This document shows positions 15,890 through 61,489 of a stretch of DNA of 64,000 nucleotides, one piece after another. Source of the DNA: Octopus vulgaris. Lineage: Eukaryota. Positions within the stretch are counted from its first letter, which is position 1; every line of letters begins with the position of its first letter. A program made the translations under genes and the position numbers. The DNA lies in contig OX597833.1 of NCBI GenBank assembly GCA_951406725.2, forward strand, positions 41,354,001-41,418,000, in the 5' to 3' direction. The notes under the pieces are model-generated. The model was not told the origin of the DNA, searched no databases, and worked only from the letters and a program-made list of their open reading frames with translations.

Positions 15890-15934
15890 CACACGCCGAT
15901 GACGGGTCAATACCCAGAAACTCGAGTCCGTGTG
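15890..15934 (+). ncRNA. Minimal type-I hammerhead ribozyme motif (CCGA core variant)
   Basis: CACACG-CCGATGA-c-GGG tcaata CCC-a-GAAA-CTCGAG-TC-CGTGTG: 6-bp stem I, palindromic stem III, GUC site. Confidence 0.75.
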
Positions 15935-16439
15935 TATCATAAGTTGGAGACGGGAAGGATGGCTTCCCTTTGCAAATACTGATAGGGCACAGAAAGTGTG
16001 TCTATAGCCAGCCGGAGGAGGTGTCCTCCTGGGGCTACAAACTACAGTAGCATCCACCCTTAGGGGTTAGCCATATTTAAATGGCATATATACGTCATAA
16101 TAGTATTTTGTCGTTGACAAATAAGAGATACAGGAGAACGTTATGATAACGCACTTTGAAGTGCCTGATGGACGCTAACAAATTACTAAAACGTCACGTA
16201 GGCAAAAAAGAACTCAATATGACTGCACAATGATTAAAAAGTGAATATTCTATTTGTATTCTCTGTTTTCTGCAAACTAGTAATTATTTCTCCTATATCA
16301 AAAAGAATGAAGTCTCTATAGGATTTTCAGAAGTGGAAAGTACTAAGAGTGGTAAAACCAACCAACCAAAAACATTGCGTCTTGCAACTTTTTCAATAGC
16401 CGTTGACTCTGTTCGTTATCAGAGCTGCATTCTTTGTGT

Positions 16440-17120
16440 TTGTTTGTTTGTGTGCATGTGTGTGCATCAGCGTGCATGTGTATACACATATGTATGTATG
16501 TATGTATGTATGTATGTATGTATGCATGTATGTATGTATGTATGTATGTATGTATCTATGTATGTATGCATGCATGCATGCATGTATGTATGTATGTATG
16601 CATGCATGCATGTATGTATGCATGTATGTATGTATGTATGTATGTATGTATGTATGTATGTATATATGTATGTATGTATGTATGTATGTATGTATGTATG
16701 TATGAGTGTGTGTATGCATGTATGTATGTGTGTGCATATATATGTTTGCGTGTGTATACGCTTGTATGCATGTATGTATTCTGCATATTTATGTGTTTGT
16801 GTGTTCATGTTTGCGTTTGTATGGGTGTGTTTGTATGTGTATGTGTGTGTGTATTTGTGTGTGCATGTTTGAGTGTGTGTGTATGGGTTTGTGTGACTAT
16901 GTACGTGCATCTGTATGGATGTGTGTCTCCATATATATCCTTGTGTATGTGTGCATATGTGAAGTGTGCGTGTGTGTATATGGTGATGTGTTTCAGTCTT
17001 CATTTGTGTGTGTGTGCATGCGTGTGTGCTTGTCTGTCCGTATTATCTATCTATCTATCTATCTATCTATCTATCTATCTATCTATCTATCTATCTATCT
17101 ATCTATCTATCTATCTATCT
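16440..17120. repeat. (TATG)n/(TG)n/(TCTA)n microsatellite block
   Basis: Directly visible. Source of the spurious MYVC/HTYI ORFs. Confidence 0.95.
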
Positions 17121-17149
17121 ATTTGCCTAGTTGTTTACTTATATATCCA

Positions 17150-17372
17150 TTAACCACATGTGAATCGTTGGCGATTTTTTTCCTCCGTCTTCCTTCTCTA
17201 TTGGACTTTTCTCTGTCTTATGTTTCTGAAGAAGAGCTTTGTTCGATTCGTAAAACCACCTTTCTTTCCTTCCCTGAGTGTCTGCTAATACTTTACATGT
17301 ATCACGTCCTCACGCTGTTGTTTTTTTTTGTGTGTGTTTGTTCTTCGTTTTTTTTGGGGGGATGGATTAACT
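17150..17372 (+). mobile_element. Penelope-type pseudo-LTR repeat with degenerate hammerhead (17222-17256)
   Basis: GTTT-CTGAAGA-A-GAGC ttt GTTC-GATT(GAAA mutated)-CG-TA-AAAC. Homologous to 31010-31230 and 54857-54960. Confidence 0.7.
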
Positions 17373-17399
17373 ACACACACACTCACACACACCTTTACG

Positions 17400-57239: not shown

Positions 57240-57780
57240 CCATACACCAGCTGCAGATCATGCTGACGGAACTAGACACTCATAGCGTAGCAGTAGGCCT
57301 TAAAATGAATAGTATAAAAACAAAATATAAACGGTCGGAAGACGTAGCACAAGGCCAAATAGAGATTGGCGACCGACGAAATAGAAGAATACGTCTTATA
57401 AGGGGACACATTGAGTATGCGTCGAGATGTGGATGCTGGAATAAGGGCAGGATGGAAGGCATTTAACGGCGCAAAAGGCCATGGAAAGATTCATGTTAGG
57501 AATATCACTAAGAGAGTATATTCGAAATGGAGGGGAATGAACGATGTGATCGTAGAGTACCGAAAGCTATAGTTTCACTGGGCCGGACATATAGCAAGGT
57601 TCACAGACAACAGGTGCATCCGTGCAGTTGCTAAGTGGAATCCAAAAGATAGGAAAAGGCCAGTTTGACGGGCTCCACGCGATAGGAGACGATTTAGTCA
57701 AGATGAAAAAGAATGATGCAATCAAGACAGAATTGGAAGCGCATTGCAGCCAGCGGTATATAACATGATCTGGTCGGTAC
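57240..57780 (+). mobile_element. RTE-clade LINE 3' remnant
   Basis: QLQIMLTELDTHSVAVGLKMNSIKTK, AMERFMLGISL and WAGHIARFTDNR. Confidence 0.75.
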
Positions 57781-58385
57781 AGGGATATACAATACGCACA
57801 TACATACATACATACATACATACATACATACATACATACATACATACATACATACATACATACATACATACCTGCATACATACATACATACATACATACA
57901 TATATATGTATGGGGAGAAGCTTGTTTCTCAACCACATGGTTCCAGGTTCAGTCCCACTGCGTGGCACCTTGGGCAACTGTCTTTTACAGTAGCCTCGGG
58001 TCGACCAAAGCCTTATAAGAGGATTTGTAAGAAGCCTGTCGTATATTTATGTGTGTGTGTGTATGTGTGTATGTATGTATGTATGTATGTATGTATGTAT
58101 CTATCTATCTATCTATCTATCTATCTATCTATCTATCTATCTATCTATCTATCTATCTATCTATCTATGTGTGTGTCTTTGTGTCAGTGTTTGTACCCCA
58201 TCACTGCTTGACAACCGGCGTCAATGTGTTTACATCCCCGTAACTTAGCGGTCCGACCTAAGAGACTGATATAATGAGTACTAGGCTTCCAAAGAATAAG
58301 TGCTGGGGTCGATTTGTCCGACTAAAAAGGCGGTGCTCCAGCATGGCTTCAGTCAAATGACTGAAACATGTAAAACAATAAAAGT

Positions 58386-59022
58386 ATATGTATGTATGTA
58401 TGTATGTATGTATGTATGTATGTATGTATGCATGCATGCATGCATGCATGCATGTATGTATGTATGTATGCATGCATGCATGTATGTATGTATGTATGTA
58501 TGTATGTATGTATGCATGTATGCATGTATGTATGTATGTATGTATGTATGCATGCATGCATGTATGTATGTATGTATGTATGTATGCACGCATGTATGTA
58601 TGTATATATGTATGTATGTATGTATGTATGCATGTATGTATGTATGTATGTATGTATGTATGTATGTATGCATGCATGCATGTATGTATGTATGTATGTA
58701 TGTATGTATGTATGTATGTATGCATGCATGCATGCATGTATGTATGTATGTATGTATGTATGTATGTATGTATGTATGTATGTATGTATGTATGTATGTA
58801 TGTTTGTATGAATGCATGCATACATGTATGTATGTATTTACGCATGTATATATGTATGTATGCATGCATGTATGTATGTATGTATGCATGTATGTATGCA
58901 TGCATGTATGTATGTATGTATGTATGTATGTATGCATGCATGTATGTATGTATGTATGTATGTATGTATGTATGTATGTATGTATGTATGTATGTATGTA
59001 TGTATGTATGTATGTATGTATA
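58386..59022. repeat. (TATG/CATG)n microsatellite, ~640 bp, at a SINE tail
   Basis: Directly visible. Confidence 0.95.
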
Positions 59023-59939
59023 GATAATGGTTTCTGCTTTGGGTATAGAACAAAATGATAAAGTTAATGTAAACTTATCGCTTCAAAATTGAGTCTATCT
59101 GTTCCGTTTCCTTGGCTTTAATTTACATTTAATCTTTTTGCACCGACTTCTTATTTTAAGGCCCAAAAGGCAACAAACATGACGTAACGTGTATTTATTT
59201 CTATGCGCGTATGCATAAACATATGATACAATAGAATACGCTTGTGTTTTCAATGCTACACGTCGAACAGAAAGGCTGTTCCTCATATATACACAAATGT
59301 GTGTGTGTGTGTGTGTGTGTGTGTGTGTGTGTGTGTGTGTGTGTGTGTGTGTGTGTGTGTGTGTGTGATGTGTGTGTGTGTGGATGTGTGTGTGTGGATG
59401 TGTGTGTGTGTGTGTGTGTGTGTGTGTGTGTGTGTGTGTGTGTGTGTGTGTGTGTGGATGTGTGTGGATGTGTGTGTGTGTGTGTGTGTGTGTGTGTGTG
59501 TGTGTGTGTGTGTGTGTGTGTGTGTGTGTGTGTGTGTGAAATTGCGAAAAGCTTTCCTGGAGACTTTTCTAATATTGCAGCATCTCTACTGGGAGTATCG
59601 TCTGAGCCTTACTAAATATATGATATGGGAAATATCTTACAGATATGGGAAATATCTAGACACTAGTGTTTCAAGATATTTCCCATATCTGTACGACTTT
59701 CCACAATAACGTACAAGATTACATTACCCAAATGCTAACTGTGTGCTTTGAAAATTGATACCTGCCTCTCCATGAAGTTTCCAACGATGTAGGCGTTCGT
59801 AAAAGTTCATGATTCTAAAAGAAGAATTCATGATGTTGTATTGTGTTGCCGCAAAAGTTTGTTGCGACGCTTATTGACGGATGAACAAAAAGAAAATTGA
59901 GTCACAATCAGTCAAGAGCTGTTCGATTGCTTTAATGCT

Positions 59940-61489
59940 TTATTTACATTATTTACATTGGACGGATATGTGTCGTCACCTTGTTTGTTGTTACCCCAAA
60001 CGTTTCGGTTGGTTTACTCTCCAGCCTTCGTCAGGTGTCCTGGTGGAATTTTGAATCCAACCCTGGGTTCTCATCCCTAAGGTTGTTTTTTTTTTGCTGA
60101 TATTATTATTATTACTCTTTTATTCTTTTACTTGTTTCAGTCATACTGGAGCACCGCATTTAGTCGAGCAAATCGAGCCCAGGACTTAATCTTTGTAAGC
60201 CTAGTACTTATTCTATCGGTCTCTTTTGCCGAACCGCTAAGTTACGGGAACGCAAACACACCAGCATCGGTTGTCAAGCGATGTTGGAGGAGGACAAACA
60301 CAGGCACACAAGCACACACACACACACACACGCACACACACACATACACACACACATACACACACACGCACATATATACACACACACACATATATATATA
60401 TATATATATATATATATATATATATATATATAGAGAGAGAGAGAGAGAGAGAGAGAGAGAATAGATAGATAGAGAGATAGATAGATAGATAGATAGATAG
60501 ATAGATAGATAGATAGATAGATACGACGGGATTCTTTCAGTTTCCGTCTACCAAATCCACTCACAAGGCTTTGGTCGGCCCGAGGCTATAGTAGAGACAC
60601 TTGCCCTAGCTGCCACGCAGTGGAACTGAAACCGGAACCATGTGGTTAGTAAGCAAGCTACTTGCCACACAATCACTCCTGCGCCTAATAATAATAATAA
60701 TAATAATAATAATAATAATAATAATAATAATAATAATAATAATAATAAACTGGGCTACAGGAAATATTCTGCTCAATACCACAGATTTGCTTGTCAGTTG
60801 TTTGACCTTAACCAGTTGACCATGTCCCTTAGTGGCTGACGATATGTGCATCTCTGATCACGAGCAGAAGTAGTGGGGGAGCATCATAGACATGTGTTAA
60901 AAGGAATTCTTTGGGGTTTGAATAATTCACCTCTGGAAACATGGGTGTTTTGTTCAACATCCTTAAACAGCCCTTATTCAGGGACCTTTTGAGTGGGATG
61001 GGTTACTCGACCTGAAGAAAATTCTAACTGGACCCCACCTGCAAGGTCATGTGCTGTTTATCTTGATATGATATCACCATGTCGCGCACATATGGTTGTG
61101 ATGCATGTGCCTAGTGTACCCTTATCAGACGGGTAGTCATGATGGGTATGCTGGGCTTCGTATATTTTACCCCAGTGTCACTTTGATGGCATGCACTGGT
61201 CTCTCACTCAATAATAATAATAATAATAATAATAATAATAATAATAATAATAATGATGATGATGATGATGATAATAATAATAATAATAGCAACAACAACA
61301 TCAGCAAAAAAATACTTTAGGAATGTGAACCCAGGGTTGGGTTTAAAATTCTACCAGGACACCTGACGAAGGCTGGAGAATAAATCAGCCGAAATGTTGT
61401 GGTAACAACAAACACGATGAGGATACATATCCGTCCAATGTAAATAATGTAAATAATGTACAGAATTCCTCATCTCAAAAATATAGATC
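59940..61489. mobile_element. Composite insertion bounded by inverted hammerhead-bearing pseudo-LTRs
   Basis: Arms at 59940-60105 (-) and 61300-61489 (+). 12-bp TSD TGCTTTAATGCT (59928-59939, 61490-61501). HHR at 61359-61401 (+) and ~59995-60038 (-). Confidence 0.8.

Follow-up and report, generated by a model that had tools for sequence, protein, structure and literature searches.

What placed nine hammerhead ribozyme motifs within 64 kb of the Octopus vulgaris genome is the question raised by this locus. The stretch analyzed here, hereafter the window, comprises 64 kb (contig OX597833.1, positions 41,354,001 to 41,418,000) of a 2.8-Gb, 227-contig animal genome, in which microsatellites and short interspersed nuclear elements (SINEs) are abundant. 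An earlier note on this DNA had listed nine minimal hammerheads from six repeat families and regarded them as parts of non-autonomous retroposons thought to cleave as dimers, several of them lying in introns of a putative host gene. We conclude that the nine motifs are very probably type-I hammerhead copies, five of them damaged, which derive from the 3′ ends (pseudo-long terminal repeats, pseudo-LTRs) of Penelope-like families and are predicted to cut only when paired. As part of the same explanation, three of the families (C, D, and F) would represent 5′-truncated ends of elements encoding a reverse transcriptase (RT) and a GIY-YIG endonuclease, and family A a 352-nt non-coding tandem unit.

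Nine hammerhead copies from six repeat families

All nine claimed motifs were located, and every site was matched by a profile of one of six repeat families, A to F, with E-values from 4e-45 to 3e-17, in agreement with the number of families proposed. By core position, family A accounts for 15896, family B for 17226 and 31096, family C for 23142, family D for 45750 (−) and 45762 (+), family E for 48649 (−), and family F for 60034 (−) and 61363 (+). The list stood with regard to presence, but not with regard to integrity. Only four of the nine copies (15896+, 23142+, 31096+, and 61363+) have kept the core, the pairing of the stems, and the palindrome of stem III. The core is broken in four others (17226+, 45750−, 45762+, and 48649−), and the stem-less copy at 60034 (−) brings the number with full core letters to five.

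The family A hammerhead (15890..15934, +) is intact, with a 6-bp stem I, a 4-bp stem II, and C in place of U4; its palindromic stem III amounts to 8 bp in the dimer, and the predicted cut follows position 15928. Family B is represented by a decayed copy (17222..17256, +; element at ~17160-17372), in which GAAA has become GATT and stem II is weakened, and by an intact one (31092..31126, +; element at ~31021-31232). In the family C hammerhead (23138..23189, +), the core is intact and stem I is reduced to 3 bp; the copy (~22900-23390, +) is the 3′ end of a Hydra-type Penelope-like element with a tail extension. The two family D hammerheads form an inverted pair: the one at 45757..45798 (+), which has lost one A of GAAA, belongs to the 3′ end of a Neptune-type Penelope-like element, and its inverted, 5′-truncated partner at 45713..45755 (−) carries C3 changed to T with G8 unchanged. 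Family E contributes a short fragment adjoining a (TA)n run (48613..48657, −) with G12 changed to A. Of the family F hammerheads, the one at 59995..60038 (−) keeps the core letters with a mismatch in stem II and stem I lost, and the one at 61360..61401 (+), the 3′ end of a Poseidon-type Penelope-like element, has an intact core and a 3-bp stem I. Both lack the tRNA-like segment described below, the latter because the copy is truncated at its own (AAT)n run. Hammerhead-free fragments of families E and B were also observed at 47924-47978 and 54858-54905.

A strict motif scan of the window recovered two of the nine sites, against a mean of 0.16 in 100 local dinucleotide shuffles, two of which also reached two. 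A relaxed scan, set to require the core, 3 bp or more in each of stems I and II, and palindromy of stem III, gave five sites (four claimed ones and an unclaimed one at 9713, −); the 100 shuffles averaged 0.05 sites and never exceeded one. In 991 kb of loci selected for these families, 229 hits were obtained as opposed to none in one shuffle. Rfam reported no hammerhead among the best 150 of its 162 matches in the window, and nothing at gathering score for five loci.

Abundance across the genome

A first look at the genome gave the following numbers of candidates, all lower bounds: at least 1788 for family A, 2271 for B, 1708 for C, 253 for D, 912 for E, and 2253 for F. An exact genome-wide pattern, restricted to the class with the shortest stem III, matched 24,459 intact cores compared with nine for the reversed control. 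The proposal of a diverse set of ribozyme-bearing families was confirmed, with many families and hundreds to thousands of candidates in each. In the off-target flanks of the sampled loci, we counted ~110 family copies per Mb, biased to TA-rich sites. Because this is near the density in the window (140 per Mb), the window is typical of the genome. The suggested density of about one motif per 7 kb is also supported: with decayed copies included, a motif occurs about every 7-9 kb.

Core and stems of the family hammerheads

We collected the 30 best BLAST matches per family (180 loci) and compared them with the type-I core, C3 U4 G5 A6 N7 G8 A9 ... G12 A13 A14 A15.1 ... U16.1 H17. The majority sequences of all six families show a clean type-I hammerhead with the full core and a palindromic stem III, in line with the description as Penelope-type hammerheads of type I in a minimal or near-minimal form, and U4C is the majority state in families A, C, E, and G (family G is introduced below). 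The core is intact in 27 (A), 30 (B), 29 (C), 25 (D), 19 (E), and 27 (F) of the 30 loci, counts that are biased upward since the loci are the best matches to the window copies. The conservation of core versus flanks within families is confounded by BLAST selection and by element ends, and we set it aside as evidence.

We further compared 12 family sequences, comprising A-G, a family termed B2, and four single-site types, H-K. Over the first three base pairs of stem I, 35 of 36 cells are paired, with five pair types in use; family D has a U-U mismatch in this stem. Pairing is retained while stem sequences differ, as the earlier note had stated. Stem II is paired in 36 of 36 cells, partly by construction, as its register was the best of four. 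Stem III is self-complementary at 84 of 87 positions, which bears out the claim of palindromy, bearing in mind that H-K came from a scan requiring a palindromic stem III. For families A and C, the homodimer of lowest predicted energy is the active dimer; for E, the active dimer lies within 1 kcal/mol of the minimum. Types H-K, found at one site each (L218, L062, L117, and L189), have palindromic stem III sequences and differing stems.

B2 is an abundant sister family of B (L183:4440-4500, −; also L066, L098, and L111), one spelling of which occurs in 2,925 exact genome copies. Among 25 copies compared, 23 have U at position 6, and position 7 is free to vary. Across these 25 copies, which were not picked by their core, the core is 96% and the flanks 89% conserved, which we take as a weak hint. 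In L111, B2 sits ~0.9 kb behind a Neptune-type endonuclease.

Families C, D, F, and G belong to Penelope-like elements

For three of the window families, the hammerhead can be traced to an open reading frame (ORF). In family C, a C hammerhead follows on the same strand, 1.0-1.35 kb downstream, in 19 of the 30 best matches to a C-linked endonuclease, the only part of the ORF covered by this check. For family D, all three long copies that were fetched have a same-strand RT upstream, and between this RT and the hammerhead lies a GIY-YIG frame whose linker has the form CX4CxxC. Of 40 matches to the family F endonuclease, 20 were fetched; 16 of these continue into a tRNA-like segment and 12 into F sequence, three of the 12 reaching only sequence past the hammerhead. 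One locus, L305, unites the RT and the endonuclease with the F end. For these three families (19/30, 3/3, and 12/20), the term non-autonomous used in the earlier note was not borne out, as they are 3′ ends of ORF-encoding Penelope-like elements.

Searching with an endonuclease that adjoins a family E copy (L183) revealed a further family, G, with an intact 717-aa RT and GIY-YIG frame (L216:2672-5531, L217, L218, and L219). Its ~290-nt pseudo-LTRs each hold such a hammerhead, and its copies form partial tandems and inverted pairs. As 144 of the best 150 matches show 99% identity, family G is a very young element; 992 relatives of G were found. Family G carries the RWK, DKT, and CxCX5C motifs (Hydra marks), family C shows CxCX5C, and family F lacks the linker, as in the Poseidon type. 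By the motifs in the available text of PMC8557442, and not by a tree, families G and C resemble the Hydra type, family D the Neptune type, and family F the Poseidon type. Inverted partner copies occur at 47 of the 180 loci, in all six families, and same-strand partners at only 11, three of which constitute one array. Microsatellite sequence flanks the family copies, and those of B, ~210 nt long, have microsatellites on either side.

Two candidate parents for B and E were rejected. A B copy was considered as the pseudo-LTR of the intact Penelope-like ORF that it adjoins (L181:2414-5278; 955 aa), which represents another young family, but B lies directly upstream of only one of 30 such ORF starts, and the neighborhood is explained by a shared (TA)n target. 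We found no canonical hammerhead upstream of the starts of this ORF in 30 loci, apart from unrelated neighbors, and none close behind its stop in L181. Similarly, family E is not the end of the adjoining L183 endonuclease, which has its own hammerhead, that of family G.

The window itself holds a remnant of a Penelope-like GIY-YIG endonuclease frame (3844..4416, +) with 39% identity over 108 residues to the family G protein. The sequence CTGATGA occurs at 4605, 190 nt past the stop of the remnant, a spacing identical to that in family G; it may be a ruined hammerhead.

Family A is a retrozyme-like unit

Family A consists of a 352-nt unit without an ORF and is the only one of the six families shown to be non-coding; the window holds a nearly complete monomer of this retrozyme-like unit (15747..16097, +). 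Its 3′ end is fixed ~205 nt past the core, whereas the 5′ ends vary. Five units are arranged head-to-tail in L223, and a second tandem is found in L058, with most copies being solo or in inverted pairs. The RNA folds far better than shuffled sequences (z −6.6), and no own ORF lies within 1.6 kb of 55 copies. Parts of family A are contained in 14 runs presumed to be RNA. The end-to-start junction was found in runs presumed to be RNA and in one large run of unknown kind; as it also occurs in the genome, the junction does not demonstrate circular RNA. The family A unit is likely moved by proteins of Penelope-like elements.

Family F carries a tRNA-like head

Family F has a distinctive layout consisting of the stop codon, ~55 nt, a tRNA-like segment, an (AAT)n run, and the hammerhead (L016, L287, L301, and L305). 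The A and B boxes of a polymerase III (Pol III) promoter fit the consensus in the majority of 11 copies of this head. With its threshold lowered, ARAGORN predicted tRNA genes for 11 of the 30 upstream pieces, and some of these calls are spurious; Rfam gave no tRNA match. The tRNA-like segment lies on the same strand at most 330 nt upstream in 17 of the 30 F loci; outside them, it was encountered once, also preceding an F-type hammerhead. After dropping two matches of one overlapping locus and excluding two partial heads, 26 independent copies remained. Of these, 16 reach the start of the head, and 12 of the 16 end within −9 to +1, with 2.6 expected from the truncation rate further into the head (P ~3e-7).

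Such a pile-up of 5′ ends fits Pol III starts, as would be expected for a SINE that descends from a Penelope-like element and is moved by it. It could instead stem from fold-back at a short quasi-palindrome at that spot, and several of the piled-up copies are inverted junctions. We tentatively suggest, as a reading that we hold to be somewhat less probable than its negation, that family F is a SINE at birth, a Poseidon-type element having acquired a tRNA-derived Pol III promoter in its 3′ untranslated region (UTR). The last ~280 nt, containing the tRNA-like head, the AAT run, the hammerhead, and the priming site, would then be transcribed alone and spread in thousands of copies by the Penelope machinery.

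Proposed mechanism and alternative explanations

The distribution of copies can be accommodated by the following scheme. A tandem master locus would be transcribed through two pseudo-LTRs, as can be gathered from the available parts of PMC4209133 and PMC11167929. The two palindromic stem III halves would pair, possibly aided by an element protein, and the RNA would be cut, although weakly, after NUH. The element protein would then nick AT-rich DNA, and reverse transcription would begin at a constant internal position, 45-205 nt beyond the core. Early stops of reverse transcription would make short ends, incidentally containing the hammerhead, the commonest products, and such solo copies would decay for lack of a partner. 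The solo copies in the window are likely inert by-products. None of them has a near same-family partner on the same strand: the B copies are 14 kb apart with one broken, and the D and F pairs are on opposite strands. Given this and the five damaged copies, cis dimer cleavage is unlikely in the window.

Several points weigh against our interpretation. The clade names rest on motifs, the integrity counts carry the selection bias mentioned above, and no own ORF was found within 1.6 kb of 41 B and 19 E copies, where only family G neighbors occur; rare long copies of B and E would escape this survey. The active dimers of families B, D, and F lie 8-20 kcal/mol above the predicted minimum, and four families (A, C, E, and G) carry U4C, which, according to the available text of PMC3088659, reduces in vitro activity yet is tolerated in a viroid. 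In the one reconstituted system, a Penelope-like hammerhead required the protein of the element to cut and was dispensable for insertion in vitro, and no RNA ends were seen at the site (PMC11167929). An alternative is that the hammerheads are vestigial or structural passengers, retained in the pseudo-LTR because they bind protein or guide folding, and that they cleave little or not at all in the cell. It would be favored by U4C in four families and A6U in B2 (23 of 25), both of which would reduce catalysis, by catalytic mutants that insert normally in vitro (PMC11167929), and by Naiads, which spread without canonical hammerheads (PMC8557442). We nevertheless regard it as rather unlikely, because 12 families with unrelated stems retain both the catalytic core and a self-complementary stem III, as selection for dimer cleavage predicts. 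This alternative agrees with ours on the Penelope origin and differs on function alone.

Less probable still is that the six families are independent non-autonomous retroposons, either retrozymes or SINEs, although this is partly suggested by the ORF-less family A unit with its fixed 3′ end, five-unit array, and strong fold, by the ~210-nt B copies between microsatellites, whose single ORF neighbor is coincidental (1/30), and by the pile-up of short F copies at the tRNA-like start. The continuation of C, D, and F into Penelope-like ORFs refutes it for these families as a general statement, and locus L111, where a Neptune-type endonuclease precedes the B sister family B2, speaks against it as well. 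We give very little credence to intronic ribozymes regulating a host gene in the window. All four intact copies do lie on the + strand, but five copies are damaged, no near same-strand partner is available, and the density equals that in unrelated flanks elsewhere. The introns of a putative host gene assumed previously were not recovered either: no host gene or intron was found. No credible host-protein domain was present in the 147 scanned of 256 unique open frames in the window, a scan that short exons would escape, and Pfam searches of 14, 2, and 147 window frames yielded transposon domains and sub-threshold noise only. Finally, chance matches can be practically dismissed. The strict scan alone would be marginal, but the relaxed scan of the window (5 vs. 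0.05), the hits in the selected loci (229 vs. 0 in one shuffle), and the genome-wide count (24,459 vs. 9) leave hardly any room for them.

This genome offers a test bed for asking directly whether the hammerheads cut in vivo and matter for transposition, having a very young and intact family G, at least 12 hammerhead families, and the natural core variants U4C and A6U. Family G is a ready candidate helper for reconstitution.

Other features of the window

The window contains further remnants of mobile elements, namely a broken LTR-type retrotransposon with RVT_1 and DUF7041 matches (34334-36446, −) and Mariner/Tc1 transposases (2349-3058, 18556-18969, and 42484-43407). Two related copies of inverted repeats around short telomere-like (TTAGGG) runs are located at 28414-29032 and 49966-50520.

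Comparison with known systems

As a class, the arrangement is already known. It matches PMC4209133 (Cervera and de la Pena, 2014), the main result of which, in the text available, is the massive genome-wide occurrence of hammerheads of many families in metazoan Penelope-like pseudo-LTRs. Shared with the hammerheads described there are the type-I core, the short stem I, the extra nucleotide before stem II, and the palindromic stem III, as well as many families per genome, mostly solo truncated copies, and opposite-strand pairs 100-700 bp apart. The octopus genome differs in number, a single class alone accounting for no fewer than 24,459 intact cores as opposed to 2,000-9,000 obtained there by a different search, and in the core variants, U4C being the majority state in four families and A6U occurring in one, when set against the same available text.

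Within the literature searched, PMC8557442 (Craig et al., 2021) was the only work found on Penelope-like elements, hammerheads, and octopus. As far as its accessible text goes, our elements resemble the Hydra, Neptune, and Penelope/Poseidon clades in their C-terminal GIY-YIG domain, partial tandems, inverted 5′-truncated copies, tail extension, and (TA)n bias, and the tRNA-like segment in the family F pseudo-LTR has no counterpart in that description. Nor did we find a tRNA- or Pol III-bearing Penelope end in the literature searched, which excluded subscription papers, Repbase entries, and supplements and is therefore weak evidence.

Family A is similar to animal non-LTR retrozymes, as far as described in the available text of PMC7229834 and the preprint 10.64898/2026.07.22.740005, in that its unit is ~350 nt long and lacks an ORF, is arrayed head-to-tail, contains a single type-I hammerhead with stems of 6 and 4 bp, and gives a highly structured RNA. 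Unlike them, it occurs mostly as solo or inverted copies, has a U4C core, and is known here from DNA units instead of circles.

The short F copies recall the SINE-like hammerhead retroposons of Schistosoma (PMC6765202, in the part available), in which a Pol III-type promoter likewise precedes the hammerhead within a short repeat. In contrast to these, the promoter-like segment and hammerhead of family F constitute the 3′ UTR of an RT and GIY-YIG element, the copies are solo or inverted and not tandem, and the hammerhead is minimal. Should the short F copies prove to be transcribed by Pol III, they would qualify as SINEs using a Penelope-like partner in place of a long interspersed nuclear element (LINE). 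Family F would then be a SINE that depends on Penelope machinery and is still joined to its parent, and it would show a route to the promoter-plus-hammerhead repeats of Schistosoma.

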